Virus record (IMG/VR): IMGVR_UViG_3300025016_000004
Length of the DNA stretch: 64,000 bases
Direction: 5' to 3' (one strand)
From: a virus
Taxonomy: Duplodnaviria; Caudoviricetes
Below are positions 1,074 through 35,995 of this stretch, in pieces; position 1 is the stretch's first letter, and each line of letters opens with the position of its first letter. A program made the position numbers and the translations under genes. Below the pieces are notes generated by a model, which searched no databases, was not told the origin of the DNA, and was given only the letters and a program-made list of their open reading frames with translations.

Positions 1074-4000
1074 ATGTCTTTTGTAACCAAATTAGATTAC
1101 TCAGATAATAGACAAATAAAGCAATTCCAATTAACGAATACTAAACTTTCTGGAACAACAGAGTTCGGTCTTGATGTTAATGATTTGGGTGGTGTCAATG
1201 AATCAACAGTTTATCAAACTGGAACTTTAGTTAATATTACTTCGACTTTCTCAGGAAATTCAAGTACAACTATTTTTTGGTTTGGCGACTCTAGTATGAT
1301 TCCCGCAGCATCAAGTTTATATGCTATTACTAACTTAACATCAGGTGATACCCAAACTGCAAGAGGTTTTGAGGGTGTTGGTCCTACTATTGTCGATGGT
1401 AATAATATCTATAGTGGTTATACAGGTTCTACTTATGACCTTATAGTTACAGCGATAACTGAAACAGGTGTTAATGAATGGACTGGTGAAACTTATTCAA
1501 GTAATGTTGCTATTTTAAGTGGTGCTTCAGCTGATTTTACTGGTAGAGCTATATGGGTTGACGTTTTAGGTGTTACTAGGACCAAACGTTTAATTTTAGC
1601 CGATAAACCAGATTCTTTAACTGGTGTTACAACTGTATTAACTAGAGATGAATTTGGCGATATTTATGAAGTTGAATTCAGTGCTGTAACAAATGATAAT
1701 TATATTTCTGGTGCAACTTTTAGCGCATCAACTGGTGATTTACTCTTAATAAATACATCAGGTGAAACCATAACAACTAATCTTGATGGTAGATATCTAC
1801 CGTTATCTGCAACAACTGGTGATGACTATGTAACTGGAAGTACTTATGATTCATCTACTGGGTTAATTACATTTGAAAGACTTTCAGGTGGTACATTTAC
1901 TGCTAATATTGGTATTACTTCAGGTGATACAACTAATTGGGATTCAGCTTATAACAATATAATAACTGGTGTTACTGTAACTGGAACTAGTAATAAAACA
2001 TTAACTCTTACGCAAAGAAATGGTGTTACTATAACAACCTCTTTTGTTGATTTAACTGGTGGTGGAGCTGGTGAGACTATTACTGGTATAACGTTTAATA
2101 CAACTAACGGTGATTTAATCCTTACAACTAATTCAGGTAGTACAATCCCAACCAATTTAGATGGTAGATACTCATTAACTGGACACACCCACGATTTTAG
2201 TGGTTTAACAAACACAGGTCATACTCATGTTATTAGTGAAATAACTGATTTCCCAACCAACGTTTCATTTTTCACAAATGATGTTGGTTATTTAACGGCT
2301 TATACAAATACGGATAATTATTTAACAACCCATACCTTTAACACAAGTACTGGATTATTTGAATCCACATTACAATCTGGTGGTACTGTTTCAGTTAACC
2401 TTGATGGTAGATACGCATTTAGTTCAGGTCATACACATACGGTATCTGATATCACCGATTTTCCAACTGATTTATCAGCATTCACAAATAGTGTTGGTTA
2501 CATAACTGGATTCACTGATACGAATGATAATGATTATGTATCATCTGCTGGATTTGATATTGGTACTGGCGTATTAACTTTAACTAGATTATCTGGTGGA
2601 ACTGTAACAGTTGATTTGGATGATAGGTATTCATTAAGTGGTCATACACACCCTCAATATTTAACTGGTTATACAGATAATAATGATTATATTACATCTG
2701 GTTCATTCAACCCAGCAAATGGTGAAGTAACCCTTACAAGAGTTTCAGGTGGGACAGTAGTATACAATTTAGATGGTAGATATAGTCTTACTGGCCATAC
2801 TCATACTGTATCTGAAATAACTGATTTTCCAAGTGTTGTCTCATACTTCACAAATGATGTTGGGTATTTAACGGCCTATACGGATACAAATATATTCGTT
2901 AGTGGTGGAACTTTTAATTCTGAAATATTAGAATTCACAAATACATCAGGTGGCACATTTAATATAGATTTAAGCAACACATATACATTAACAGGGCATA
3001 CTCATACTGTTAGTAATATTACCGATTTTCCAACAAATATTTCATACTTCACCAATGACGTAGGTTATATCACAGGATTCACAGACACAAATGATTATGT
3101 AACTAGTGGGGTATTTGATATTTCAACTGGTAATTTAACATTAACAAGAGTTTCAGGTGGAACTGTTGTAACAAATTTAGATAATAGGTATTCATTAACT
3201 GGTCATACACATGTTGGTCTTTCTGATGATTATGTGTCATCCGCTGGATTTGATATTAGTACTGGGGTATTAACCCTAACTAGAATAAGTGGTGGAACAG
3301 TTACGGTTGATTTGGACGATAGATATTCATTAAGTGGACACACACACACTGTATCTGAAATAACAGATTTTCCAATTGTTATCAGCTATTTCACAAATGA
3401 TGTTGGGTATTTAACTGCATATACAGATACAAATATATTTGTATCAGGTGGTACATTCAGTTCTGAATTATTAGAATTCACCAACACTTCAGGTGGAACA
3501 TTCAATATAGATTTAAGTAATACGTATGCGTTAACAGGCCATACTCATACGATTAGTGATATAACTGATTATGTGGTGGTTGATGATTATGTTACTACAG
3601 CTTCATTAAATCAATCGACTGGTGATTTGACGTTAACAAGACTTTCAGGTGATACTGTTGTTACTAATTTAGGGTTTACTTCAGGTGATACAACCAACTG
3701 GAACTCAGCTTATAACGACATAATAACTGGTGCTACTTTCACTGGACTTGCAACTAAAACATTAACTCTTACACAAAGGGACGGTAATACAATAACAGCT
3801 AATTTCACAGATAATAGTGGTGGTGGAGCTGGTGAGACTATTACTGGTGCAACATTTGATACGTCAACTGGTGATTTAGATTTAAATAGTAATTCAGGTA
3901 ATACTATTACAACTAATTTAGATGGTAGATATTCATTAACTGGTCATACTCACGTTGTTGCAGACATAACAGATTTCCCAACTGATTTAAGTGGATTTAC

Positions 4001-6926: not shown

Positions 6927-6984
6927 ATATTATTTGAGATATTTATTAGTAATACCTTTGGATAGTTGGAAGAAGGATTAAACT

Positions 6985-21517: not shown

Positions 21518-21772
21518 TTATGTATTTAAAGATTGAATTAATACAATTGCTTGGTCAATTGTTTGGAAACTCCTATTTGGAACCAATACATGTTTATCAA
21601 ATATGATGATAGGGATTACAGGTTCACCAACGAAATCAAATAATTTAATGACATGTTCTCTATTGGAATCATCATCAATATTTATATTGGTGAACTCAAG
21701 GTTTAATTTGCTTAACTTTTCTTGTAAATCCTTACAATAAGGGCAATTATTACTTGTATATACTTTTATCAT
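21518..21772 (-). CDS. Glutaredoxin / NrdH-like redoxin
   Basis: IKVYTSNNCPYC active site and a VIP cis-Pro motif, 84 aa. Confidence 0.9.
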   Translation of the reverse strand: MIKVYTSNNCPYCKDLQEKLSKLNLEFTNINIDDDSNREHVIKLFDFVGEPVIPIIIFDKHVLVPNRSFQTIDQAIVLIQSLNT

Positions 21773-24678
21773 AACTCTAATCCGTTTTCTTCTAAATCAT
21801 TTAATAATCTGGATAATCTATCACTAGTTTTATCACCTCTATTTAATATTTTATCAATATTTTTTTGTTTATTCATCACAGAATACCACATCACAAAAGA
21901 TACTGTACCTCTAAATAATTGGTAATAAACTGAAACGTTATTTTTCTGCCCGATTCTGTAACAATTATGAACATTATAATTACCAACTACAAATGAGTGG
22001 TCATCTTCTACTGATAAATCATAAACCCTTTCCTCACCTCTTTTAGGTTTTGAAATTTTAATTGATTTAATCGGGTAAGTAATATAATCACCTACTTGAT
22101 TAATTCTTTTATTTTCAACTCTATTTAATGAATACTCAATTGAGTAATTATTAACATTTTTATTAGATAAAGTAACACTCCTACCTAAATTAGCGTTATA
22201 TCTAACCAATTGTGATATTAATTTTAAAGAAGCGGTAGTAGCTTGTTGAGTATTTTTACGTTGGTAACCATCACCATGATAATACCCATCTAATAAATGT
22301 TTTAATTGTTCATTATTTAAATAATCAACCCAATATGGTAATTGTTTAGAATATACATTTTCACCGAACCACATTTTAAATAAATTTGCCATTTCACTAG
22401 AATGTATGGTACAAGTTTTTGTATTATTTTTATCAACATAAGATGAATGTTTATCAATTTTAAAACCCCTTTTTATTATATCAATAATATATTCTGAAGC
22501 GTCATACATTTTAGGGTTAGTTATTTTTTGACATACATTAATTGTATCTGATTTATTATCAGAAATACTACACCAACCATCAGCAATGTAAAACCCAAAA
22601 GCGTATAATAATTCATTAGTTAATAAAACACTTTTAGGTAAAGTAACTAACCTACCATTGGTTTGTAAAAGATTGTGATTATTTTTAAAGTACTTACTTT
22701 TAAAACTTGGTATTTTTAATTCTTCTAATCTACTTATTGGTTGATGTTCACTTCTAATCGTTAAAAAATGATTCAAAATATTTAAATCTTTTGCTTCAAT
22801 CCAAATAAAATCATCTAATATTTTATCATATACATATAATTTATGGTCATGTGTAACTGATAAACTGTTATTATATCCAAAAGCATTTATATCATATCTT
22901 AATTTTTTACGTTCTAATTTAGAAGTTTTATCAATTACATTTTTAAATTTACCTTTATGTGTATAAACTTTATCACCAATTTCAATTTCTTGAATCATTT
23001 TATAACCATCGTCAGTCATAACCCATTGGTCACCAAATATACATCTATCTTCCGCTTGTTCATTATCCCCTGGCACCCAACTGAATGAATTAAAGATAAC
23101 CACAGTACCTTCAGTTAACGTAATACCAACACCCGCAGAAGCTATATTTCCAATAAATACCTTACATTTCTTATTGGTTTGGAATTTATCCACTGATTTT
23201 TGTTTTTCAGTTGAATTCATTCTACCATTATGTATAACGCATTGATTTCCGAAATGTTCAGCTAATTCTTCCAATTCATCAGTAAAAGTAGTAAAAATAA
23301 CGATTTTTTGACCTTGTTCTATGGCATCTTCAGCTAATTCGATTGTTTTTGGTATCACTTCCATAGCAATAAACTTTCTTAAAAGACCTAATTCAACCAA
23401 ATCTTTATTTAAACTAACTCGCTTACCTTCAGCCGCCTTTTTCTCTAAATATTCTTCCCAAAGGTTTTCATATTCAGCCCAACCACGTTTTGACATATCA
23501 TGATACATTGTGGTAATGGTTTTATCTGGCATATCCAAAACATCAGTTTTTAATCTTCTTAAAAGGTTGTTTTTAGTTCTAATTCCTAATTCATCTAAAT
23601 TAGAAGCACCATCAGTTATCCAAATCTGTCTTTTAACTCCGTTTATTACTTTATAAAATCTTTTAGCATCACAATATCTTTGAGCAAAGAACTTCCAATT
23701 ATCAGCCAATGGTGATTTAACCAATTTTAATAAATTGAAGAAATCCATAGGTCTATTAGCAATTGGTGTACCTGTTAATAACCACACTTTACCGATTTGA
23801 CCTTTAGAAACAATATCATTGATTAATTTGGTTCTTTGAGCTTTGGGGTTTTTAACCTTATGAGCTTCATCTAAAATCATCAAATCATAATCTTCATCAA
23901 TTATATTGGTGTAACAAGGGTCACCTTCTTTTTTAGGTTTACCTATACTGTGAAAGTTTTTAAGTATTTCATAATTTATAATGGTAAACCTACCAACGTG
24001 AGACCACTTACTACCATTAATAATCGTAGCTTTTTGTTTAAAACTTTCTATTTCTCGTTGCCAAGTAATTTTCATACTCACTGGACAAATTATTAAAACT
24101 TTTTTAATATCCATTTCTAATGCAGCGATAATTGATTGATAAGTTTTTCCTAGGCCCATCGAATCAGCTAAGATTGCACCATCTCTACACGCTAAGAACT
24201 CAATACCACTTTTTTGATGCTCATATGGGTGACGGCCATCAGTGTCTAATTCTTCATATTTACCCCAATCAATTTCAATTTCACATTCAGTAAAATATGG
24301 GTCATCCAAAACCATTGTTTTTGGTAACCAATACATTTTGGATTGTTTTTGTTTTTGTGTTAGCTTACCATAAACGTGATATGTCTTTTCTTGGTCAGCC
24401 AACATTGCTTGAATTAGCATACGCTCAGGTACAAAAGATAAACTGTATTTATCTTTTAATGATTCACCTAGAAATGGGTTAATCCTAATCACACGATTTA
24501 GGACTTGTGGTTCCACATCATGAAATTTATTTATATATTCAACTTGACCTTCAGTTAAAGTTATTTTATCATTTTTTCTTAACTTACTTTGCAAGTCTTT
24601 TAAGTATGGGTTAATCCCTGTATATGTTTGTAATAAGGTTACTGCACCTCTACTCTTTATGTCTTCTAAATTTATCAA
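21769..24678 (-). CDS. SNF2/SWI2-family helicase with one intein (about 609 aa after splicing)
   Basis: LADSMGLGKT, DEAH, LTGTPIAN, GVGITLT; motif VI QAEDR|CYRIGQ interrupted by the intein. Confidence 0.93.
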   Translation of the reverse strand: MINLEDIKSRGAVTLLQTYTGINPYLKDLQSKLRKNDKITLTEGQVEYINKFHDVEPQVLNRVIRINPFLGESLKDKYSLSFVPERMLIQAMLADQEKTYHVYGKLTQKQKQSKMYWLPKTMVLDDPYFTECEIEIDWGKYEELDTDGRHPYEHQKSGIEFLACRDGAILADSMGLGKTYQSIIAALEMDIKKVLIICPVSMKITWQREIESFKQKATIINGSKWSHVGRFTIINYEILKNFHSIGKPKKEGDPCYTNIIDEDYDLMILDEAHKVKNPKAQRTKLINDIVSKGQIGKVWLLTGTPIANRPMDFFNLLKLVKSPLADNWKFFAQRYCDAKRFYKVINGVKRQIWITDGASNLDELGIRTKNNLLRRLKTDVLDMPDKTITTMYHDMSKRGWAEYENLWEEYLEKKAAEGKRVSLNKDLVELGLLRKFIAMEVIPKTIELAEDAIEQGQKIVIFTTFTDELEELAEHFGNQCVIHNGRMNSTEKQKSVDKFQTNKKCKVFIGNIASAGVGITLTEGTVVIFNSFSWVPGDNEQAEDRCIFGDQWVMTDDGYKMIQEIEIGDKVYTHKGKFKNVIDKTSKLERKKLRYDINAFGYNNSLSVTHDHKLYVYDKILDDFIWIEAKDLNILNHFLTIRSEHQPISRLEELKIPSFKSKYFKNNHNLLQTNGRLVTLPKSVLLTNELLYAFGFYIADGWCSISDNKSDTINVCQKITNPKMYDASEYIIDIIKRGFKIDKHSSYVDKNNTKTCTIHSSEMANLFKMWFGENVYSKQLPYWVDYLNNEQLKHLLDGYYHGDGYQRKNTQQATTASLKLISQLVRYNANLGRSVTLSNKNVNNYSIEYSLNRVENKRINQVGDYITYPIKSIKISKPKRGEERVYDLSVEDDHSFVVGNYNVHNCYRIGQKNNVSVYYQLFRGTVSFVMWYSVMNKQKNIDKILNRGDKTSDRLSRLLNDLEENGLEL
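21964..23043 (-). mobile_element. Intein with LAGLIDADG endonuclease in SNF2 motif VI (360 aa)
   Basis: Begins CIFGDQWVMT and ends VYDLSVEDDHSFVVGNYNVHN|C; FGFYIADG and LDGYYHGDG motifs. Confidence 0.93.
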
Positions 24679-24795: not shown

Positions 24796-24843
24796 ATGGG
24801 TGCAAATAGAAATAAAATACCAATTAAAAGAATCAACAAATAA
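24796..24843 (+). pseudogene. Orphaned original 5' end of the neck gene (MGANRNKIPIKRINK*)
   Basis: Encodes PIKRINK, as does the start of 25619..26131; nt 24818-24841 are identical to 25632-25655. Confidence 0.7.
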
Positions 24844-24850
24844 GTTTTAT

Positions 24851-25064
24851 AAAACGGAGCGTAAAACCCATTCATCGCTTTAGCGTGAATGGGATGTAAG
24901 CAACAAAAAGATTTGACTTTTAAAAATAAAGTTGTATATTTTTATTAACTCTGGTTTTGGGATGCAATCGGAGTATAAACAAAAACAAGTGGAGGTGTTG
25001 ACGTTGGTCGAGTCTATGAAACTTGAAGCCCAACCCATCGGCTCGCCGTGGGTGGGTAGTTCAC
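24851..25064 (+). mobile_element. Non-autonomous IS200/IS605 derivative, copy 1 (tnpB deleted; left end, promoter and omegaRNA-like right end kept)
   Basis: 5' flank TTTAT; left end aaaacggagc plus hairpin cccattca/tgaatggg; TTGACT-16-TATATT; right end gaagccc...hairpin...gggtagttcac; homologous to copy 2. Confidence 0.8.
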
Positions 25065-25065
25065 T

Positions 25066-25641
25066 GAAAAACTTAAAAGTAGGAAAAAAGAAATTGGTTA
25101 TAATATATCAGTTGGTGGTCGAAATGGAGTAACTCTTAACAGAAAACATTCTAAAGAAACAATAAAGAAAATGAGTGAAACTAGAAAGGGGATTACATTT
25201 TCTAAGGAAACTTTAAAAAAAATGAGTGAAGCTAAAAAAGGTAAAAAACACTCTAAGGAAACTAGAGAAAAGATGAGTAGACTTAAAAAAGATAAAAAAG
25301 GTAAAAAACACTCTAAGGAAACTAGAGAAAAGATGAGTAGTCTTAGAAAAGGTAAAAAACATTCTAAGGAAACTTTAAAAAAAATGAGTGAAGTTAAAAA
25401 GGGTGATAATAACCATTTTTTTGGTTTATCTCACACAATGAAAATTAGAAATATCATTTCCAAAAAAAACTCTAAAAAAGTATTTGAATTTAAAGATGGT
25501 GATAAAATTAATGAATGGGATAGTTTAAGTAAATGTGCTTTAGATAATAATATTAATATTGGTTACTTATCAAAATGTATAACTAATAATAAAAAATGTA
25601 AAAAAAGATATTTTAAATATGAAAAAGTTGGTACCAATTAA
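25066..25641 (+). pseudogene. N-terminally truncated GIY-YIG/NUMOD3 homing endonuclease
   Basis: The frame upstream of ATG 25171 reads EKLKSRKKEIGYNISVGG (end of a GIY-YIG domain), followed by KHSKET..KMS repeats; no GIY-YIG catalytic motif is left. Confidence 0.75.
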
Positions 25642-26131
25642 AAGAATCAACAAATTTTTTTCTAAAAGAGATTTTGATTTGGAAATTTCTTTAGGTCGTG
25701 AAGCGATAGAAGGTGATGGAAATTTTACTGTAATTTTATATAGAGTTGATAGGAAAACAACCCAGGTTGATGATTTATATGGTGAAGCAAGTGCTAGTGA
25801 AATCAATTTTCTACCTCCCGTTGAGATTTATATAGTTCCGATTATAGATAAAGCTGAAAATAAAACATATAATCCAGATTCCATGCGTTATCTTGAAGAT
25901 GGTAATTTAACTTTCATTGTTTATGTACAACATTTAAACGAATTGGCTGTTGATATAACTGTTGGTGATTATATAGCGTATCCAATTGATGAATCGGACG
26001 TTGTTTATTTTAATGTGACTAATGCTGGTGAAAAGAATTACGACAACGCTCACACAATAATGGGTTATAAAGGTGCTTATAGAATTATCAATTGTACTTT
26101 TGCCAATGAAGATGAATTCAAAGGAATATAA
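25619..26131 (+). CDS. Putative neck or head-closure protein (T4 gp14-like)
   Basis: VILYRVDR..TQVDDLYGE...F.PPVEI...VGDYI...YFNV pattern; located before the terminator-like and sheath genes. Confidence 0.55.
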   Translation: MKKLVPIKRINKFFSKRDFDLEISLGREAIEGDGNFTVILYRVDRKTTQVDDLYGEASASEINFLPPVEIYIVPIIDKAENKTYNPDSMRYLEDGNLTFIVYVQHLNELAVDITVGDYIAYPIDESDVVYFNVTNAGEKNYDNAHTIMGYKGAYRIINCTFANEDEFKGI

Positions 26132-26143
26132 AAAAAATAAATT

Positions 26144-26887
26144 ATGCCACTACCAAAAGGGTTTATTAAAAAAGTAAATTTTATACATCAAAATGTCGGA
26201 CCTGAAAAAAGACAAGACTACCTTGATGATATAGATTATAAAGGTACGTACCTGCCAAAGGGTGTGAGCTATGAAGATATCGATAAAACATTCATCGATT
26301 TTATTGATAAAGAATTATCCCTAGAAATTGATGGTGAATTAGTGCCAGTAAGATTCTTAACCATTCAAAGGTTTGCTGAATTCTCTAAAACATGGTCATT
26401 TTCAGATAAATTTAAAAACTTAAAAATGCCCTTCATTACCGTAGTTAGACAACCTGATATTCAGGTAGGTACTAACCAAGCGGGTATATGGAATATTCCA
26501 GGCCAACAAGTCTATACATACATGAAAGTACCTACTTTTATTGATGGTAGAAAGGGTATGGACACATATAAAATTCCTCAACCAACTTCGGTTGATATTA
26601 CTTATGATGTTAGATTTTTCTGTAATAGAATGAAAGATTTGAATAAATTACACACAATTGTTCAAACAACCTTTAACTCTAGACAGTTTTATATTAATGT
26701 AAATGCACACCCAATGCCAATTCATTTAGAGAAAATTGGTGATGAGAGTCAAAAAGATGATTTCGACAAAAGAAGATTCTATGTTCAACATTTTGAAATG
26801 AAAGTATTGGGATATATTTTAGATGAAGAAGATTTCGAACATATCCCAACTATTAACAGGGGTAATATTCGATTTACGGAAGAATAA
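26144..26887 (+). CDS. Putative tail terminator or completion protein, paralogue 1
   Basis: KMPFITVVR...PTSVDITYDVRFFCNRMKDLN...HFEMKVLGYI resembles T4 gp15-like proteins; lies upstream of the sheath gene. Confidence 0.55.
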   Translation: MPLPKGFIKKVNFIHQNVGPEKRQDYLDDIDYKGTYLPKGVSYEDIDKTFIDFIDKELSLEIDGELVPVRFLTIQRFAEFSKTWSFSDKFKNLKMPFITVVRQPDIQVGTNQAGIWNIPGQQVYTYMKVPTFIDGRKGMDTYKIPQPTSVDITYDVRFFCNRMKDLNKLHTIVQTTFNSRQFYINVNAHPMPIHLEKIGDESQKDDFDKRRFYVQHFEMKVLGYILDEEDFEHIPTINRGNIRFTEE

Positions 26888-26911
26888 AGTGAAGCATTTA
26901 TATTTATTAGT

Positions 26912-27943
26912 ATGCCACAAGGATATAAAAAAAATATAAAATTTATAAATCAAAATATCGGACCTGAAAAAAGGCAAGATTATCTTGATAATATAGATTA
27001 TAAAGGAAGTTATTTACCTAAAAGTATCTATTACGAAGATATCGACCAAACATTTATTAATTTTGTTGATAAAATTTTAGAAATAGAAATTAATGGGGTA
27101 AAGGTCCCTGTTTATTTTTTAACCATCCAAAGATGGGCTGAATTCTATAAAACTTGGGATACAGCTGATAAATTCAAAAATATTAAAATTCCCTTCATTA
27201 CTATAGTTAGACAACCTGATATTCAAGTTGGAACAAATCAAAATGGATTATGGAATATTCCAGGCCATAAACTATACACTTATATGAAAGTACCTACCTA
27301 TATAGGTGGTAGAAAAGGTGCTGATATGTATAAAATCCCTCAACCAACTTCAGTTGATATAACTTATGAAGTTAGGTTTTTCTGTAATAGGATGAGAGAT
27401 TTAAATATGTTTAATAGAAAAACTCAATTTACTTTTCAATCAAGACAATACTACATCAACGTAAGTGGTCATCCAATGCCAATACATTTAGAGAATATTG
27501 GTGATGAAAGTCAGGTTACTGATTTTGATAGACGTAGATTTTATGTTCAAAATTTTGAAATGAAAGTATTGGGTTATATTTTAGATGAAAATGATTATGA
27601 ATTTGTACCAACTATCAATAGAATGATAGTGTTTACAGAATTATACGATAAAAAACTTAAACCTAAAGTAGTTATTAGGTCATTTAAAGATATTGATGAG
27701 ATAATTTTAAACGTTGTTATTAAAGCGGACCATTATACTGAAGAATTTATAATAGTACCAGAATATGATGCTGAAATAAGGTCAATAACATACGTAACAA
27801 ACGTTACAAATGTCAATATAGCCATCAATGGAGTTCAACAAACACTTCCATTTAATATTTTAGCAAACCAAGAAATAACTTTAACTGTTGATAGAGATGT
27901 AACTAAAGAAGCTAGATTTGAAATTAAAGGATTAGTTAAATAA
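26912..27943 (+). CDS. Putative tail terminator or completion protein, paralogue 2 with C-terminal extension
   Basis: Roughly two-thirds identical by eye to 26144..26887 over about 245 aa, plus about 100 extra residues. Confidence 0.55.
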   Translation: MPQGYKKNIKFINQNIGPEKRQDYLDNIDYKGSYLPKSIYYEDIDQTFINFVDKILEIEINGVKVPVYFLTIQRWAEFYKTWDTADKFKNIKIPFITIVRQPDIQVGTNQNGLWNIPGHKLYTYMKVPTYIGGRKGADMYKIPQPTSVDITYEVRFFCNRMRDLNMFNRKTQFTFQSRQYYINVSGHPMPIHLENIGDESQVTDFDRRRFYVQNFEMKVLGYILDENDYEFVPTINRMIVFTELYDKKLKPKVVIRSFKDIDEIILNVVIKADHYTEEFIIVPEYDAEIRSITYVTNVTNVNIAINGVQQTLPFNILANQEITLTVDRDVTKEARFEIKGLVK

Positions 27944-28232
27944 TGAGTAATATTAATAGAACATATGTATTTGAAACCGTATTAATTAGCGGTGGGACTA
28001 GTGGAACTACTCTTGAGTTCTTCACTGGTGCAACCTTTGATACAGGTACAGGTCATTTAGTGCTGATACAACAGTGATAGCCGCTGCGGTTTGGGATAAA
28101 TTAACTGCTGACCATCAAACTGCCGATACATTCGGTAAAATGTTATATGATATATTGGTTGCTACTGGACAGATTCAACATACAGGGAATGTCAATACTG
28201 AATTACTTAAAAATAAGCCAAATAATCCGTAA
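27943..28232 (+). pseudogene. Internally deleted fibre-like gene (N- and C-termini joined out of frame)
   Basis: Frame 0 reads MSNINRTYVFETVLISGGTSGTTLEFFTGATFDTGTGHLVLIQQ*; the -1 frame from about 28059 reads SADTTVIAAAVWDKLTADHQTADTFGKMLYD...NNP*. Confidence 0.55.
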
Positions 28233-28272
28233 TTTAATTTTACGAATTTTTTTCCATATTTATATATAGAGG

Positions 28273-28422
28273 TTATTCACCATATAAGTCTGCTTGTTTT
28301 TTACAAGCATCCTTGATTAACTTCTCAACAAACCCAAACATTTTAAGACCATTGTCTTGACAATAATCTTTTAAAATTTTATGTGTTGTTGGTGTGATTT
28401 TCAAGTTTTTACTCCTTTTCAT
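28273..28422 (-). CDS. Small ribbon-helix-helix-like DNA-binding protein (49 aa from ATG 28422)
   Basis: MKRSKNLKITPTTHKILKDYCQDNGLKMFGFVEKLIKDAC has a beta-strand/helix/G/helix pattern; TATTTATA motif 12 nt upstream on its strand. Confidence 0.65.
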   Translation of the reverse strand: MKRSKNLKITPTTHKILKDYCQDNGLKMFGFVEKLIKDACKKQADLYGE

Positions 28423-28573
28423 AGGGTTTTTATTATAAATATAGAGGAAGTATGATAAAACTAAGACAAAAATCATACTAATTATTATATATGTAATATA
28501 TAATAAAACCTTTTGATAAAAATTTATATATTTATTTAAAAATAAGAATTACAAACTTTAAAATATTAATTAC

Positions 28574-30994
28574 ATGAGTTCTAACAACAGAGTATTCGTA
28601 AGCCCAGGAGTTTACACTTCAGAGAAAGATTTATCATTTGTAACACGTCAAGTTGGTGTAACAACATTAGGTTTGGTAGGTGAGACAACAAAAGGTCCAG
28701 CTTTCCAACCAATTTTTGTTTCTGACTTTAACGAGTTCAAAGCGTTTTTCGGTGGTCTTAACGCAACAAAAGTAGCCAGCACAGGTTACCCAAAATATGA
28801 ATTGCCATATATCGCAAAATCATATTTCACAAAATCAAACCAACTGTATGTGACTAGAGTTTTAGGATTTTCAGGCTATGATGCTGGACAATCTTGGGCG
28901 ATAACAGCTGATAATAACCAAGTGGTTGCGCTTTTAAGAAGTAGAGCCGCTTATGATGGTACTGAAACATTAACATTCCAAACTACCGCATTAGGAATGG
29001 TTGATAGTTTAAGTGCGTTGACTGCTGATGCTAAGGCTGAGTTTACTCTTAGTGGGGCTTCAACAACAAGTACTGGATTTACATACAACGTTTCTTTTGA
29101 TTCAACCAAAAAGAATTTCATTACTAGAGTATTAGGTACTAACGCTGAAACAGGTCAAGCACCTATTTATGTTGAGGAAATTTATTCAAAGATGTTAGAA
29201 AATTTAATTTCTACTTCAGGTGTGACTGGATTAACTGTTGGGTTAATTGATAATGCGTCTATATTTTCAGATTATAAAACTGAATATTTACCAGCTGTAA
29301 CACCATGGGTAGTTTCAGAGGTTAACGGTAACGTTATTAAAAAATTATTTAGATTAGTTACAATATCTGATGGTAATACTGCAAACTCTGAAATTAAGGT
29401 TTCAATTGAAAATATTAAACCTGATGATAGAGAATTCGATGTTAGAATTAGGGCTTTTTATGATACTGATGCAAACCCTGTTACATTAGAAAGATTTTCA
29501 AGATGTACTATGGACCCAACTTCAGATAACTTCGTTGCTAGAAGAATTGGTACTTTAGATGGTTTTTATGCATCTAACTCAAATTATGTATTACTTGAAT
29601 TGGATGAAGATGAAGATACTACAACTTCTTTCCCAGCTGGTTTTACAGGTGTTCCATCAAGAATTTATAGTGGTGTTGATGCACCTTCAATTGGGTATAA
29701 CCAATCTTACGCTGCATATTCTAAAATTAGAAAAATTTATTTAGGTTTATCTGATACTGTTGGTATTGACCAAAATTTCTTTAATTACTTAGGTACTGAT
29801 TTAACAGTAACAAGTGGTGTTACTGATGGATTCCACATGGATAGCGGTGCAACTAACAGTATGTTAGCTGGATACACCTTTGTTAATGGTGATTCTGAAC
29901 TTAGAGATGATGCTGGAATAGTTGGTACTAGCTACGAAAAGATATATTCTCGTAAATTCACAATGGCACCTTACGGTGGTTTTGATGGGTGGGATATCTT
30001 TAGAAATAGTGAAAGAACAAACACTGACACATTCAAAATTGGTGGAGCTAAAAGTAGTTTAGCTATAACAAGTACTGCAATTGAAACTAAAGTTGTGAGT
30101 AACGGTGATTTAGGAACAACTTCCGATTATTACGCTTATTTTGAAGCTATAAACACATTCAATAACCCTGAAGCTATTAACATTAATGTGTTAGCAACAC
30201 CAGGTATTGATGTATTTAATCAAACAAATTTAGTTGAAGCTACAATTGAAATGGTTGAAGAGCAAAGATGTGATTCAATTTATATTGTAACTACACCAGA
30301 TAGAAATGCTGGTACTGAAGATATCTTAGATGTTGATGATGTAGTTTCTACATTGGATAATACAGGAATCGATAGTAACTATACTGCAACATACTGGCCT
30401 TGGGTGCAAGTATCTGATACAGATAACAACGTATTACTTTACTTACCGCCTACAAGAGATGTGTGTAGAAATATCGCATTAACTGATAATGTATCATTCC
30501 CATGGTTTGCTGTGGCGGGTGTTCAAAGAGGTGTTGTGCAAGCGATTAAAGCAAGAAAAAAATTAACTCTAGATGAAAGAGATACATTGTATGAAGGTAG
30601 AATTAACCCAATTGCAACATTCGCTTCTGAAGGACTTGTTATATTTGGTAATAAAAACTTACAAACTAAAGATTCTGCATTAAACAGACTTAACGTAAGA
30701 AGGTTATTATTACAAGCAAGAAAATTAATATCTGCTGTATCAATAAGATTATTATTCGAACAAAACGATGAAGTAGTAAGAAATCAATTCAAAACATTGG
30801 TTAACCCAATTCTTGAAAACATTAGAAGTGAAAGAGGTCTTACAGATTTCCGTGTAGAAGTTGATAACACACCTGAATCAATTGATAGAGGTGAATTAAA
30901 TGGTAGAATTTTAATAAAACCAACTAGAGCTTTAGAGTTCATCACAGTTGAATTTGTGGTAATGAATACTGGTGCTTCATTCGAGGACATATAA
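28574..30994 (+). CDS. Tail sheath protein
   Basis: SPGVYTSEKDLS, YWPWV, PWFAVAG..RG, INPI, FGNK.LQ, LNVRRL, FEQND, IKPTRALEFI: the canonical sheath motifs. Confidence 0.95.
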   Translation: MSSNNRVFVSPGVYTSEKDLSFVTRQVGVTTLGLVGETTKGPAFQPIFVSDFNEFKAFFGGLNATKVASTGYPKYELPYIAKSYFTKSNQLYVTRVLGFSGYDAGQSWAITADNNQVVALLRSRAAYDGTETLTFQTTALGMVDSLSALTADAKAEFTLSGASTTSTGFTYNVSFDSTKKNFITRVLGTNAETGQAPIYVEEIYSKMLENLISTSGVTGLTVGLIDNASIFSDYKTEYLPAVTPWVVSEVNGNVIKKLFRLVTISDGNTANSEIKVSIENIKPDDREFDVRIRAFYDTDANPVTLERFSRCTMDPTSDNFVARRIGTLDGFYASNSNYVLLELDEDEDTTTSFPAGFTGVPSRIYSGVDAPSIGYNQSYAAYSKIRKIYLGLSDTVGIDQNFFNYLGTDLTVTSGVTDGFHMDSGATNSMLAGYTFVNGDSELRDDAGIVGTSYEKIYSRKFTMAPYGGFDGWDIFRNSERTNTDTFKIGGAKSSLAITSTAIETKVVSNGDLGTTSDYYAYFEAINTFNNPEAININVLATPGIDVFNQTNLVEATIEMVEEQRCDSIYIVTTPDRNAGTEDILDVDDVVSTLDNTGIDSNYTATYWPWVQVSDTDNNVLLYLPPTRDVCRNIALTDNVSFPWFAVAGVQRGVVQAIKARKKLTLDERDTLYEGRINPIATFASEGLVIFGNKNLQTKDSALNRLNVRRLLLQARKLISAVSIRLLFEQNDEVVRNQFKTLVNPILENIRSERGLTDFRVEVDNTPESIDRGELNGRILIKPTRALEFITVEFVVMNTGASFEDI

Positions 30995-31008
30995 AGTATT
31001 AATATAAT

Positions 31009-31043
31009 AAAAAACTCCTTAATGATTTATTAAGGAGTTTTTT
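31009..31043. terminator. Bidirectional intrinsic terminator
   Basis: aaaaaactccttaat-gattt-attaaggagtttttt 15-bp stem between convergent genes. Confidence 0.85.
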
Positions 31044-32670
31044 TATATGTAATAGTTCCACAATCATAAATTCTATTAAAACCCCTATTACTCATTATCT
31101 CACATTCAGTTAGATTTCCATCAAAACCTTCTTTAATTAATTTATCTTTTCTAAAACCAAATCTATGTTTACGATTTTTATTAATAACATACCAATAATT
31201 AGGTTTGTTGATTCTAATTTCTTCAAAACCTAATGTTTTATATAATCCACCATCACTCCATCTTCTATCTGCATAACTAACAATTTCTTTCGGCCTATTT
31301 TCACGTATGAAATGTTTTAAAAGTTTTGATGCACCACCAATAACATTTGTGTTTAATTTATTACAAAATCTAGACAATTCAAAATCATATTTTTGTTGTC
31401 CAATACCCAATCTAGGTTTATTAAATAACATAATACTAACCAATTCACCCTTATAACGCAATCCAATGTGATGCGTTGCATTTATACCACCTTGTAGGTG
31501 ATTATCATTAAGAAATTTAATACTCTCTGAGTTACTTATATTATCTATAATACACTCTCTACCATAAATTCTATTTTCAGTTAGATTTAATAGATTTTTT
31601 AATCTTGATTTAACAATTTCTGGTGTGTTAACCCATTCATCTTCAAAAATATGGATTAATTGAATACCTTGTTTATCACATAATTGGGTTTTATTTAAAT
31701 GATAATCTTTATTTAAAAATTCTTCAGAATGCCAATATAATCCATCAAACTCGATTGCTATTTTCTTAGATGGTATGTATATATCTAATTCTTTACCTAA
31801 TATTATTGACCTATTAGATGTAATTGTGTCAACACCTAACGAATTAATGAATTTATTAATTTCAATTTCTTGGTTGGATATAATTGAGACACATTTAGCA
31901 CAACCATGTCCACTTAAATGGTCATAAGGTAATTGCTCAAAATCACCATGCTTGGGGCATGTAATATTGTATTTATTAACCATATTAACATAATCACCAG
32001 ACTTGTAAGTGTATTTATTATTATGAACAAGATTAGCTTTTATTATGAATTCTGTGTTTGATAAAGTTAATTTAACTTTTGTAGATTCAATACCACAACT
32101 AGGGCAGCCTTTACCTCTAATATGATTATAAGGTTGTTGTTTAAATTCACCATGAATTGGACATATAATTGTAACTTTTGTTTTTGAATCTACATAATTA
32201 ACTTTGATGTAATCATATTTATTACCATGGGTATTTTCAGATTTAATTAAAAAATCAGTTAATGTTTCTTTTATATTTTTACGTTCTAAATGACATTTTT
32301 GACAACCCGATTTATAATGACCATTTGGTAATTGTTCAAAATCACCATGTTTGGGGCATGTTATTATTAATTTATTTTCAGAACCGTTATACACTGTTTT
32401 AGAATAATTATATTTATTACCATGAGTGTTTTTAGCTTTAATTAAAAACTCATCTAAATTAGTAACTTTACCACCACATAAAACACATTTTTTATAACCT
32501 CTTAAATGTTCAATAGGTGTTTGTTTAAAATAAATTAAATGTTCATTACATAGGATATCTATTGGTGTTTGACTATCTAGGTAATTCATTTTTGAATAAT
32601 CGAATTTATTTTTGAATTTATTTTTAACCTTTTCTAAAAATTTATCAACCTTTTTAATATTTTTTTTCAT
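31030..32670 (-). CDS. Hef-like homing endonuclease with Zn-ribbon repeats, inserted antisense between sheath and tube
   Basis: Repeated YDYSK..Y......I.CPKHG.F.Q.P..H..G.GC..C units, a nuclease motif ELDIYIP..KIAIEFDGLYWH, and C-terminal ELSRFC...GGASKL...SYADRRWS.G.LY..LGF. Confidence 0.75.
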   Translation of the reverse strand: MKKNIKKVDKFLEKVKNKFKNKFDYSKMNYLDSQTPIDILCNEHLIYFKQTPIEHLRGYKKCVLCGGKVTNLDEFLIKAKNTHGNKYNYSKTVYNGSENKLIITCPKHGDFEQLPNGHYKSGCQKCHLERKNIKETLTDFLIKSENTHGNKYDYIKVNYVDSKTKVTIICPIHGEFKQQPYNHIRGKGCPSCGIESTKVKLTLSNTEFIIKANLVHNNKYTYKSGDYVNMVNKYNITCPKHGDFEQLPYDHLSGHGCAKCVSIISNQEIEINKFINSLGVDTITSNRSIILGKELDIYIPSKKIAIEFDGLYWHSEEFLNKDYHLNKTQLCDKQGIQLIHIFEDEWVNTPEIVKSRLKNLLNLTENRIYGRECIIDNISNSESIKFLNDNHLQGGINATHHIGLRYKGELVSIMLFNKPRLGIGQQKYDFELSRFCNKLNTNVIGGASKLLKHFIRENRPKEIVSYADRRWSDGGLYKTLGFEEIRINKPNYWYVINKNRKHRFGFRKDKLIKEGFDGNLTECEIMSNRGFNRIYDCGTITYKKTP

Positions 32671-32746
32671 TTTTTTTATATTTATTATTAAATAACAATT
32701 AGTATTTTACAATGATACTACAAAAAATTTAAAAAAACAAGAAAAT

Positions 32747-33235
32747 ATGTCAGATTTATTGATGAAAATGCCCGTACCATACGAGCCTAAGAAAAAAAAT
32801 AGATGGTTAATGAGATTTCCAGCCGAATTAGGTATTCAACAATGGTGGTTGCAATCAGCATCACGTCCTTCAATAGAACAAAATGAAGTGGAGATTCCTT
32901 TCTTGAATACTTCAACTTGGGTTATTGGTAGATTTACTTGGTCAACAATAGACGTTGTTTTCAGGGATGCAATTGGACCTTCATCTTCTCAAGCTATTAT
33001 GGAATGGGTAAGATTACAATCTGAGTCAGTAACTGGAAGACAAGGTTACGCTGCTGGATATAAAAAAGACGTTGAAATTGAAATGTTAGACCCAACTGGT
33101 GTTGTTGTTGAAAAATGGCAATTACAAGGAACGATGTTAACAAATGTTGGTTTTGGTGATTTAGCAATGGATGATGATGGTATCGCAGATATCACAGCTA
33201 CATTGAGATTTGACAGAGCAATATTAATATTCTAG
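32747..33235 (+). CDS. Tail tube protein (T4 gp19-like)
   Basis: 162 aa directly after the sheath region; EPKKKNRW...SRPSI....VEIPFLN...GRFTW..I...D.I...W...GYKKD.....LDPTG. Confidence 0.88.
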   Translation: MSDLLMKMPVPYEPKKKNRWLMRFPAELGIQQWWLQSASRPSIEQNEVEIPFLNTSTWVIGRFTWSTIDVVFRDAIGPSSSQAIMEWVRLQSESVTGRQGYAAGYKKDVEIEMLDPTGVVVEKWQLQGTMLTNVGFGDLAMDDDGIADITATLRFDRAILIF

Positions 33236-33388
33236 TATCATACTGATTATCAGTTAGTTACAAATTAAAAAGTAAAATAGCTACGTCAAATATTAGGATT
33301 CTAAAATTTCAAATAATGATATACAATATGTCATGTGGTTTGAAATGAAAATAAACGGTTTAGGACCGATTATAGTCAAACGGCTATT

Positions 33389-33427
33389 AAAATCACTTAA
33401 GTTTCGCTACCTAAGTGATTTTTTTTT
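33389..33427 (+). terminator. Intrinsic terminator after the tube gene region
   Basis: aaaatcactta...taagtgatttt stem followed by a T-run. Confidence 0.7.
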
Positions 33428-33449
33428 ATATTTATATTAAACAGATTTT

Positions 33450-33812
33450 ATGAAAATACCAATAGTTAAATACAGTGATAAATTCTTAGACTCAATTAGT
33501 TGGTTTATGAAAATAGGTGGCGTTACTTTATGGCCATATATCGTATTAAGAGAAAGATATAATAGCTCACAATATTATAAAAATGTGGCTAAAAAAATTA
33601 TTAATCACGAATCAATTCATATAAAACAACAACAAGAAATGTTAGTGATACCATTTTATTTATGGTATGGTATTGAATGGTTTATAAAACTTTTTAAATA
33701 CGGCACAAAGGCGTATAATAACATTTCATTTGAAAGAGAAGCGCATTCTAATGATGATAACCTAGATTATCTTAATGAAAGAAAATTCTGGGCATGGATT
33801 AAATATATATAA
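33450..33812 (+). CDS. Small protein with HExxH zinc-peptidase-like motif
   Basis: NHESIHIKQ...SFEREAH plus a hydrophobic segment. Confidence 0.55.
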   Translation: MKIPIVKYSDKFLDSISWFMKIGGVTLWPYIVLRERYNSSQYYKNVAKKIINHESIHIKQQQEMLVIPFYLWYGIEWFIKLFKYGTKAYNNISFEREAHSNDDNLDYLNERKFWAWIKYI

Positions 33813-33813
33813 A

Positions 33814-33969
33814 ATGACAAGAAGAAATGATAAAAAATCAGCAATGCGTGAAGCTAATAAGAGGTTTCAAGAAAGAATGAATGCTCAAAGTTTATATGCT
33901 GAAGAAAAAGTAGTTAAATACACTATTGTTCCAGATTTATACCCTCAATTGTCTAAAATCTTAAAATAA
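33814..33969 (+). CDS. Small hypothetical protein (probable start ATG 33814)
   Basis: MTRRNDKKSAMREANKRF...; its stop overlaps the next ATG (taatg). Confidence 0.5.
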   Translation: MTRRNDKKSAMREANKRFQERMNAQSLYAEEKVVKYTIVPDLYPQLSKILK

Positions 33970-34238
33970 TGAAAACAAAATTAAAGATAACCGAAGCACA
34001 ATTTAAAAGATTAAAAGAAATTTTAATCAAAGAAACTAAATTTAGTTGGGATGGAAGATATGCCAACGAAGATGTGAACGAAATTATGCTGGGTAATGAT
34101 ATGGAATTACCATTAGAAGAAGATTTAGATGAAACATGTGGTTGTCCACTTAACCAACCAGAACCAACAGACGTTAAAAATAGTCAATGGTTTTCAAAAG
34201 AAGATGGTGAAAGAACTATCGATAATATCTACAATTAA
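33969..34238 (+). CDS. Small hypothetical protein
   Basis: 89-aa ORF beginning MKTKLKITEAQFKRL, coupled to the previous ORF. Confidence 0.6.
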   Translation: MKTKLKITEAQFKRLKEILIKETKFSWDGRYANEDVNEIMLGNDMELPLEEDLDETCGCPLNQPEPTDVKNSQWFSKEDGERTIDNIYN

Positions 34239-34299
34239 GAAAAAAAACTTTATTTTAAGTATTTATAGTATATAATATATTTAAATAAGTTTTTATAAA

Positions 34300-35406
34300 A
34301 TGGAAAAACCAAATGTATTCCCAGCATCAAAAATGACTGATGCTATGAAGGAAGCCAATGAAACTGGCACAAAAATAGCTCAACAAGCTAAAGAAGAATT
34401 AGCTATCATCGAAAAACACAAATCTAAAGGTGAAATGGAGGCTCAAGCTCAAATGAATAAAGAAAGTCTTGAGCGTTTAGAAGAACAATTAAGATTAAGA
34501 GATGAATTAATCGCACAAAGAAAGGCTGAAGCTCAAGGTCTAGAAATTGAAGCACCAATTGATGTTAAACCTAAAGTAAGTTATTCACAACCTGAAACAA
34601 AAGCGCATAAAAAAATTGAATTATCTAATGAAGATAGATATGCGGCTTTAAGTACTCCACAAGAAGACGTGCCTTATGACCTACTTAAATTACCAAGTGA
34701 AGGGTTATTATACAAAAAAGGTAAAAGTGCCTTAAAAGTGGCTTATTTGAATGCTATGGATGAGAATATCATTACCAACCCAAATCTTTTAAAGTCAGGA
34801 AAGTTTTTAGAGATATTAATCAATAGAAAAATATTAGATACTAACATTAGATATAAAGATTTACATGTTGGTGATAGAAATGCAATTATGATTTGGTTAC
34901 GTTCTACAGGTTTTGGACCAATGTATAAAATTAAATTGAATGACCCTAACGATGATTATAAAGAATTTGAGGTTGAACTTGATTTATCTAAATTAGGAAT
35001 TAAACATTTAGGTGTAAAACCTGATGAAAATGGTCATTTTACATTTAAATTACCTGTTGCTCAAACAACAATAAAATTTAGACTATTAAATACTGGTGAT
35101 GTTGAAGATATTGAAACTCATTTGGATGAAATGTCTAAAGAAATGGGACCTGAATTTACTGACGCTTCAACATACACACTTTTAAAGCAAGTTGTTGCAG
35201 TTGAAGATGATTATGATTCTGAAACAGTTAAAAACTTTGTTGAACAAAAAATGAGACTTGGAGATGTGAGAGCATTTAGAAAGTATGTGAACGAAATTGA
35301 ATCTGGCATTGATATGAATATCACAGTCGAGACTCCTGGGGGTGGGTCCCTTGCCACGTTTCTTCCCCTTAACTTTTCATTTTTTTGGCCTGACCTTGGA
35401 ATATAA
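34300..35406 (+). CDS. Tail or baseplate-hub assembly chaperone (T4 gp26-like)
   Basis: LPSEGLLY...V.YL.A.DENI.....L...GDRNAI...LR..GFG...Y; ends LPLNFSFFWPD; lies between the tube and tape measure genes. Confidence 0.7.
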   Translation: MEKPNVFPASKMTDAMKEANETGTKIAQQAKEELAIIEKHKSKGEMEAQAQMNKESLERLEEQLRLRDELIAQRKAEAQGLEIEAPIDVKPKVSYSQPETKAHKKIELSNEDRYAALSTPQEDVPYDLLKLPSEGLLYKKGKSALKVAYLNAMDENIITNPNLLKSGKFLEILINRKILDTNIRYKDLHVGDRNAIMIWLRSTGFGPMYKIKLNDPNDDYKEFEVELDLSKLGIKHLGVKPDENGHFTFKLPVAQTTIKFRLLNTGDVEDIETHLDEMSKEMGPEFTDASTYTLLKQVVAVEDDYDSETVKNFVEQKMRLGDVRAFRKYVNEIESGIDMNITVETPGGGSLATFLPLNFSFFWPDLGI

Positions 35407-35614
35407 GAGGCAGTTATTGGAAGAAATTTATGTTTGTAGACAACATTTAGGGTTTTCTTATGAAGATTTAATGAGAATGCCAACTTATGAAAGACGATTC
35501 TTTATGGTTACGTTACAAAACGAAGCTATTGACGCTGAAGAACGTAGAAGTAGTGGTTCTAGAGTTACAAAAACAGGTAAATGGTCACAAACTAGGAAAT
35601 ATTCACCTAAATAA
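35387..35614 (+). CDS. Overlapping +1-frame ORF, candidate frameshift extension of the chaperone (GT-like)
   Basis: GLTLEYKRQLLEEIY..RQHLGFSYEDLMRMPTYERRFF resembles GT-type extensions; no early ATG; a T7 run at 35380-35386. Confidence 0.6.
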   Translation, partial: GLTLEYKRQLLEEIYVCRQHLGFSYEDLMRMPTYERRFFMVTLQNEAIDAEERRSSGSRVTKTGKWSQTRKYSPK

Positions 35615-35615
35615 G

Positions 35616-35642
35616 AAAAGCCCTTAATTATTAGGGGTTTTT
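35616..35642 (+). terminator. Intrinsic terminator
   Basis: aaaagcccttaa-tta-ttaggggttttt, immediately before IS derivative copy 2. Confidence 0.65.
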
Positions 35643-35644
35643 AT

Positions 35645-35968
35645 AAAACGGAGCATAAAACCCACCCACCGTTTTTACGTGGGTGGGATATAAGCGACAA
35701 AAAAACTTGACCTTTTAACTATAGAGTTGTATATTTACAAATAATAAGTTATCGATAACCAAGATAACCTGTTCTTTGATGTATGATATGTGGTTGGCAA
35801 ACAAGGTTTTGTTTGCCATAAAATCATGGAAAGCAAATGAAAAGAATTTTCATGTCTGAATGCGGGACGCATTTCGGACAATAAGCAAAAACAAGTGGAG
35901 GTGTTGTCGTTGGGCAAGTCAATGAAACTTGAAGCCCATCCATCACGAAGTGTGGATGGGTAGTTCAC
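35645..35968 (+). mobile_element. Non-autonomous IS200/IS605 derivative, copy 2 (degenerate tnpB 3' remnant plus omegaRNA-like right end)
   Basis: 5' flank TTTAT; left-end hairpin cccacccac/gtgggtggg; TTGACC-17-TATATT; broken Zn-finger remnants (CMICGW, ECG); right-end hairpin cccatcca/tggatggg followed by tagttcac. Confidence 0.8.
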
Positions 35969-35995
35969 TAGATATTTATATTAAAACGATTCATT

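Follow-up and report, generated by a model that had tools for sequence, protein, structure and literature searches.

Two gene-less IS605-type elements in a large tailed phage retain whole putative TnpB guide-RNA scaffolds

When an IS605-type transposable element loses its genes, can the remainder still serve as a source of guide RNA (omegaRNA) for the nuclease TnpB? This question is raised by two short elements in the virus record IMGVR_UViG_3300025016_000004 (IMG/VR; Caudoviricetes), of which we analysed a stretch of 64,000 nucleotides (64 kb), hereafter the window. The elements, 24851-25064 (copy 1, 214 nt) and 35645-35968 (copy 2, 324 nt), are homologous to each other and contain no gene-sized open reading frame (ORF). 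TTTAT lies directly 5' of each, and both start with AAAACGGAGC and finish with GGGTAGTTCAC (25054-25064 and 35958-35968). The 21-mer CAAAAACAAGTGGAGGTGTTG occurs twice in the window against 0.01 occurrences expected, and the 15-mer of the left end occurs twice against 0.22 expected. Motif and covariance-model searches of the 64-kb window found no further copies. We consider that both loci are probably miniature IS605 derivatives similar to palindrome-associated transposable elements (PATEs), each composed of a left end, a promoter, a complete scaffold and a right end, whose guides are used in trans.

The ends of both copies are homologous to the ends that enclose TnpA and TnpB in the full element L099:6917-8704, which encodes a Y1 TnpA (PF01797) on the minus strand and a 400-aa TnpB (PF12323, PF01385 and PF07282) on the plus strand. 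This TnpB matches the ISDra2 TnpB structures 8H1J and 8BF8 at E 1e-79 over residues 5-370, and its stop codon is the TAG within GGGTAGTTCAC. A left end like that of copy 1 is found in the same full element (6917-6971), and the left-end hairpin covaries across the family. The hairpins at the two ends lie on the same strand and are similar, such that a profile of the right-end hairpin also matches left-end hairpins. Both copies combine the tetranucleotide AAAA at the foot of the left hairpin with TTAT, and GAAG at that of the right hairpin with TCAC. In IS608-type elements, the foot and cleavage sequences pair by the rule TTAC/AAAG and TCAA/GAAT.

Metagenomes and genomes were scanned for the family with a left-end pattern of 23 specified bases. 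The metagenome scan gave at least 118 loci and the genome scan 49, the latter nearly all in Bacteroidota (many in Sphingobacterium, and also in Flammeovirgaceae, Algoriphagus, Galbibacter, Taibaiella and Flavobacteriales). Pairing of left and right ends gave 55 complete elements among the matches listed, and these fall into discrete size classes: 47-53 nt (left and right hairpins fused), 194-366 nt, a few of 562-1019 nt, 1301-1357 nt (tnpB only) and 1657-1799 nt (tnpA and tnpB). TTTAT is part of the scan pattern and its presence in the scanned loci is therefore by construction; independent support comes from L168 and L172, which were found through other patterns, and from contig L017. This contig contains a near-identical intergenic stretch twice (2987-3038 and 4733-4832), once empty and once with a 52-nt element. 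The empty site reads TTTAT followed by AGAACATC, and in the occupied version the element sits exactly between these two parts with no duplication. This pair therefore fixes the element boundaries and indicates that no target-site duplication is made. Sister elements have also moved recently: a 356-nt element of the L051 type, which consists of a left end, promoter, leader, scaffold and right end with no ORF and is the closest to the copy 2 architecture among the matches listed, occurs twice in one IMG/VR viral contig, at different sites and 100% identical over its full length. This points to recent transposition of a tnpB-less cassette in a phage. By sequence comparison, the window copies are gene-less derivatives of IS605-type elements of Bacteroidota and their phages.

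A sequence-only reading had described the two loci as tnpB-less IS200/IS605 derivatives with an omegaRNA scaffold, in which tnpB is gone or broken. Both the homology of the ends to elements with TnpA and TnpB and the covariation of the scaffold described below bear out this derivation. The individual features it listed are present as well: TTTAT and the shared terminal sequence, left-end hairpins that differ between the copies with pairing kept, an inner right-end hairpin that covaries (TTGAC-GTTG-GTCGA in copy 1 vs TTGTC-GTTG-GGCAA in copy 2), a CAAGT/ACTTG pair conserved in both, TTGAC-16/17-TATATT promoter-like sites, and, in copy 1, such a site directly before a scaffold of about 115 nt. 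Each promoter-like site matches 10 of the 12 sigma-70 consensus positions. As for the gene, tblastn of 16 family TnpBs and one TnpA against the 64-kb window matched two C-terminal tails only, so that tnpB is absent and not merely broken, and only chance-sized ORFs are found inside the two copies.

Alignment to intact tnpB 3' ends shows that the right 116 nt of both copies correspond to the last ~38 tnpB codons plus the right end. From 28 right ends of two subfamilies we derived a structure with four helices and 36 pairs: stem 1 (a 5' hairpin), a long-range stem, stem 2 nested within it, and the right-end hairpin. In this structure 91.8% of paired cells can pair, vs 34-42% after a shift of the 3' partners by 1-3 columns, and the covariation score is 0.448 vs ~0.07 in the slid controls, with 20 pairs varying on both sides. 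Compensated changes (for example CAAGT/ACTTG, CGGAG/CTCCG, CAGGA/TCCTG and CGTAA/TTACG) are found at all eight pairs of stem 2 and at four of the five pairs of the long-range stem. RNAalifold independently gives the three 3' helices, and one topology is common to copy 1, copy 2 and the intact L099 scaffold when each is folded to minimum energy. Copy 1 retains 35 of the 36 pairs; copy 2 retains all of them when its shorter right hairpin is given a separate register. In both copies stem 1 has its base at -116/-117 (counted from the right end). The loop of stem 1, GGRA (about -105 to -103), is complementary to UUC at -5 to -3 of the tail AGUUCAC, and this candidate 4-bp pseudoknot is compatible in 88% of cells vs 13-54% in slid controls.

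The sequence-only reading had proposed that a covariance model be built for the scaffold. We built one, R2, from 13 scaffolds, all inside intact tnpB genes, a choice made against circularity, and searched the 64-kb window with filters off. Exactly two strong matches were obtained, both over the full model length: 24936-25064 (91.8 bits, E ~3e-23) and 35844-35968 (68 bits, E ~1e-16). The same reading had also raised the question of whether the structural conservation exceeds what divergence of the parent insertion sequences would give. At the level of the family it does, in that the helices covary and the deletions stop just outside the scaffold.

These deletions are seen at the junctions of the shortened elements. 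In L012 a stub of the tnpA end is joined to -149, and in L020 a longer stub to about -123; in a group of 194-nt elements (L058, L064, L066 and L100) a further sequence is joined to about -123. In copy 1 the promoter is joined to about -117 to -122. In copy 2, L051 and L055b a leader is joined to the right end at about -119 to -131 according to blast; the tblastn match of L051 would place the junction at about -170. Further junctions lie at -126 (a 272-nt element of the second subfamily), -123 (a 780-nt element) and -133 (a third type). By our reading of these junctions, about eight independent deletion lineages among the matches listed appear to retain 117-149 nt of the right end, and none 45-116 nt. 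Elements that retain much more are rare (L014, for example, with 517 nt), and in the mid-sized L045 and L016 right-end homology was detected over just 45-62 nt. As a rough estimate, and assuming uniform and independent endpoints, the chance that eight endpoints within 45-149 nt would all avoid 45-116 is (33/105)^8, or ~1e-4. Such independent deletions, each ending a short way outside the scaffold, suggest that it is kept for a reason. In addition, the alignment as we read it shows the old reading frame broken in both window copies with their helices kept. In copy 1 a single nucleotide is missing from the right-hairpin loop; in copy 2 stem 1 has gained one nucleotide and the right hairpin is 3 nt shorter, with compensating changes.

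The promoter-like sites suggest how the scaffolds could be transcribed. Both also seem to fit the general Bacteroidota pattern TTTG-N19-20-TAnnTTT(G/A/T), the site of copy 1 as TTTG-N19-TATATTTT. The -10 box of copy 1 ends at 24940, and the predicted start, at about 24947-24949, precedes the first paired base of stem 1 (24948/24949) by 0-2 nt. A blast search with the promoter segments turned up no full-length parent that has the same promoter. In copy 2, ~110 nt of leader separate promoter and scaffold, and this leader is common to L051/L168 and L062. Its first hairpin has an invariant loop, TCGATAACCAAGA, on a covarying stem (GTTAT/ATAAC vs CAAACT/AGTTTG), and its second hairpin has three different stems among the relatives and is followed by ATAAAA. 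The 3' part of the leader may be diverged tnpB, as suggested by a match between L051 and L096 (54 aa, E 1e-10). For the 5' part no relative was detected, the leader has no match in Rfam, and a second search pattern gave no new variant of it. We also considered a small ORF of 26 codons in the leader and rejected it by eye; the L051 homologue seems to lack such a frame. A passage in PMC10278001 reports that TnpB processes its own transcript into omegaRNA, and because of this report the 5' leader should be no obstacle to guide production.

The DNA that such RNAs would target is set by the insertion site. Occupied sites read TTCAC followed by the guide, which differs from TTTAT at two positions, and TTTAT followed by either guide is found nowhere in the window. 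Self-protection by the distinction between the target-adjacent motif (TAM) and the transposon-encoded motif (TEM) is known (Meers et al. 2023, bioRxiv 10.1101/2023.03.14.532601), and the occupied-site sequence fits it. Candidate sources of TnpB are seen in a related phage and in hosts. L102, a fragment of a related phage whose sheath region is 66-76% identical in nucleotides, encodes an intact TnpB of 400 aa and has a scaffold of the same type as in the window, and many full elements were found in Bacteroidota hosts by the genome scan. In three viral records with sister elements, which are 15-53% complete, the search for TnpB found only element tails and one truncated TnpB. The positions of all these features are given in Table 1.

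Table 1. Predicted parts of the two elements and their flanks (window coordinates).
Feature	Position	Strand	Basis
TTTAT target motif, predicted TAM, left of copy 1	24846..24850	+	sequence
Copy 1, non-autonomous IS605-type element, 214 nt, no ORF	24851..25064	+	sequence, tblastn
Copy 1 left end: putative DNA-guide tetranucleotide AAAA (24863-24866) and TnpA hairpin CCCATTCA/TGAATGGG (24867-24893)	24851..24905	+	
Copy 1 promoter-like site, TTGACT-16-TATATT	24913..24940	+	consensus match
Copy 1 predicted omegaRNA scaffold, 116 nt, tail AGTTCAC	24949..25064	+	alignment, fold, model R2
Copy 1 scaffold helices	stem 1, 24948-24974; long-range stem, 24986-24990/25021-25025; stem 2, 24998-25011; right-end hairpin, 25028-25057		
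Copy 1 predicted 16-nt guide, TGAAAAACTTAAAAGT (16-nt right flank tgaaaaacttaaaagt)	25065..25080	+	ISDra2 analogy (PMC10097598)
TTTAT target motif, predicted TAM, left of copy 2	35640..35644	+	sequence
Copy 2, non-autonomous IS605-type element, 324 nt, without tnpB or tnpA	35645..35968	+	sequence, tblastn
Copy 2 left end: hairpin CCCACCCAC/GTGGGTGGG (35661-35687)	35645..35699	+	family left-end comparison
Copy 2 promoter-like site, TTGACC-17-TATATT	35707..35735	+	consensus match
Copy 2 leader, ~110 nt: TCGATAACCAAGA-loop hairpin, GTTCTTTGA box, second covarying hairpin, ATAAAA	35742..35852	+	
Copy 2 predicted omegaRNA scaffold, 116 nt, four helices as in copy 1	35853..35968	+	fold z -3.9, model R2
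Copy 2 predicted 16-nt guide, TAGATATTTATATTAA (16-nt right flank tagatatttatattaa), 5' of the gene starting at 35996	35969..35984	+	

From these features we infer transcription, loading of TnpB, cleavage and a benefit in competition between phages, in the following way. An internal deletion would have removed tnpA and nearly all of tnpB. The promoter of the element would transcribe the scaffold and continue into the flanking phage DNA, and the product would be an omegaRNA with the right flank as its 16-nt guide. A TnpB of the family, supplied in trans by the host, by a full element of the phage or by a relative in the same infection, would load this RNA, and the complex would cut DNA with TTTAT followed by the guide sequence, which is the element-free site, either after excision or in a competing phage. 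Recombinational repair from an occupied copy would then restore or spread the element. The occupied site itself should be spared, as the right end places TTCAC at the TAM position.

Other explanations for the retained right ends have to be weighed. Both copies could be inert deletion relics of IS605 elements, in which the scaffold survives by its proximity to the right end and by the recency of the deletions, and no guide RNA is made or used. We regard this as rather unlikely. The absence of tnpB and tnpA from the window speaks for relics and against guide use. The locus of copy 1 is also rearranged, with the left part of a neighbouring homing-endonuclease gene missing, the left-end hairpin of copy 2 is atypical, with a C where the family usually has a bulged T, and decayed orphan scaffolds do exist. 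One of these, at L055:13340-13462 (minus strand), is 89% identical to copy 1 and lies directly against an ORF 3' end. It lacks a left end, the 5' arm of its stem 1 is damaged and its motifs are altered (TAAGCCC, GGGTAATTCAC), which gives it the appearance of a solo right end that is decaying or has become immobile. Relics would not be expected, however, to have independent junctions that cluster at 117-149 nt and never enter the scaffold among the matches listed, or to keep pairing in both copies once the old frame is broken. The two copies differ by ~20%, yet every helix is kept in both, and the recent mobility of sister elements also argues against inertness. A further suggestion, that the retained right part is a DNA structure for transposition by TnpA and not an RNA, seems to us highly improbable. 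The right-end hairpin and the GAAG foot, which are features recognised by TnpA, do belong to the retained block. Against this, 18 complete elements of 47-53 nt among the matches listed, which are fused left and right hairpins with feet, occupy many different TTTAT sites, and for one of them the corresponding empty site is known. Transposition can therefore do without the scaffold: stem 1, the long-range stem and stem 2 are dispensable for it, yet they carry most of the covariation.

The elements could instead be kept as portable promoters or leaders for downstream genes, with the RNA acting as a leader and not as a guide scaffold. Both promoters face downstream genes on the plus strand, copy 2 lies between the end of an upstream gene and the gene starting at 35996, and the conserved hairpins of the copy 2 leader have an unexplained role. 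We nevertheless find this quite improbable: the structure is that of the tnpB-linked scaffold present in hundreds of unrelated contexts, it shows no tie to particular downstream genes, and these genes seem to have AT-rich promoter-like motifs of their own upstream.

For trans-used guides, which remain our preferred reading, several further points weigh on the other side. Consensus promoter matches are frequent in AT-rich phage DNA; around copy 1, 8 were found where 2.4 are expected. One of the ten pairs in stem 1 of copy 1 is non-canonical, or two in the R2 alignment. Covariation was measured mostly on protein-coding sequences, and kinship inflates such counts; some of the junction events may likewise have common ancestry. 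The candidate pseudoknot shows no covariation because the invariant tail precludes it, and we count this too as a weakness. Finally, identity between the window scaffolds and their nearest counterparts within intact tnpB genes among the matches listed is only ~72-78%, so an available TnpB might not recognise them.

The window comes from a large tailed phage. Its products include a tail sheath, a tail tube and a baseplate hub, and for nucleic-acid functions a gp32-like protein, a 5'-3' exonuclease and an SNF2-type helicase. The helicase gene (21769-24678, minus strand) contains an intein that has a LAGLIDADG-like domain (Pfam PF14890, PF14528). Next to it, positions 24796-25655 form a nested selfish-element locus that holds copy 1: an exact 24-nt repeat (24818-24841 and 25632-25655) flanks copy 1 together with a GIY-YIG/NUMOD3 homing-endonuclease gene. 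The N-terminal catalytic part of this endonuclease is missing, and its frame opens at the right end of the element (EKLKSRKKEIGYN...), such that the predicted guide of copy 1 falls inside the truncated frame. The predicted guide of copy 2 overlaps a motif, ATATTTATA(T/A)TAA, that recurs 5' of genes (33420-33440, 35972-35984 and 48264-48284) and may be a phage promoter motif. By eye, insertion sites (window 35616-35644, and those in L018, L087 and others) often lie where a terminator-like hairpin with its T-run ends. A T-run followed by AT would supply the TTTAT target; a terminator scan gave no call at 35616-35644.

Blastn of copy 1 and copy 2 against 50,697 phage records gave no match, and a scan of viral contigs with a right-end pattern specific to the window gave 0 matches. 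A search for relatives through the 406-aa protein encoded downstream of copy 2 found none, hence it yielded no empty-site allele for the insertion sites in the window. Rfam over the whole window gave nothing at gathering score, and only chance-level matches at E<=10 around copy 2. We also considered a group I intron or IStron and rejected it, as there is no Rfam match and no intron-like core.

The idea of omegaRNAs used in trans is already known, and this kind of element is known from bacteria. PATEs often encode omegaRNAs that are acted on in trans by TnpB, and PATE-like elements related to the ISGst elements of Geobacillus stearothermophilus have been described (Meers et al. 2023, bioRxiv 10.1101/2023.03.14.532601, the former in the Discussion). 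Like these, the window copies have parent-like ends and no protein gene, and they would provide omegaRNA for a TnpB in trans and be mobilised by TnpA in trans. Unlike them, they reside in a large phage, belong to a Bacteroidota IS605 lineage with TTTAT/TTCAC ends and are known here by sequence comparison alone. Copy 1 further differs in its predicted promoter within ~2 nt of the scaffold 5' end, and copy 2 and its relatives in an extra conserved leader.

The closest characterised reference for the scaffold is ISDra2 of Deinococcus radiodurans, whose omegaRNA has a 116-nt scaffold and a 16-nt guide (Nakagawa et al. 2023, PMC10097598). That scaffold has four stems and a pseudoknot between -5 to -3 and -103 to -105, and the sequence from -231 to -117 is dispensable (PMC10097598). 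The TnpB of full family members is a close homologue of the ISDra2 protein (E 1e-79), and the scaffold here is likewise 116 nt with four stems, a possible pseudoknot of -5 to -3 with about -105 to -103 and a predicted guide in the 16 nt beyond the right end; in both systems the scaffold overlaps dispensable C-terminal tnpB codons. In contrast to ISDra2, the predicted TAM is TTTAT and not TTGAT, the nucleotide sequence of the scaffold is unrelated, and no tnpB is present in cis in the window. If the trans-TnpB model is true, the outcome of mixed infections would be the same as for the free-standing homing endonucleases of T4-like phages (intronless homing and marker exclusion; PMC13565253), in that the element-free allele would be cut and then repaired from, or excluded by, the element-bearing genome. 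Unlike those endonucleases, targeting would depend on an RNA guide and a TAM, would be reset with each insertion, and the nuclease gene would be unlinked.

New in the window copies are their occurrence in a phage, their origin in a Bacteroidota TTTAT lineage, the scaffold convergently trimmed to ISDra2 size, the predicted scaffold-abutting promoter and the unexplained leader. The family provides a natural deletion series that maps the minimal TnpB scaffold, since its members are trimmed to ~116-123 nt, the size found by experiment for ISDra2, and copy 1 offers a natural case of a predicted promoter at the scaffold 5' end. On the practical side, a predicted TTTAT-TAM TnpB near that of ISDra2 comes with many natural scaffold variants. 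A bolder proposal, which we hold to be speculative and unlikely, is that large Bacteroidota phages keep promoter-driven tnpB-less cassettes that share few TnpBs as a system of RNA-guided homing and marker exclusion in mixed infections, in which each cassette marks its own locus for super-Mendelian inheritance and the leader is a new regulatory RNA that controls guide production. If the cassettes are used at all, they would represent RNA-guided homing in phage-phage competition with the nuclease and its guides unlinked, and the "transposon retention" role of TnpB would extend to viral genomes.

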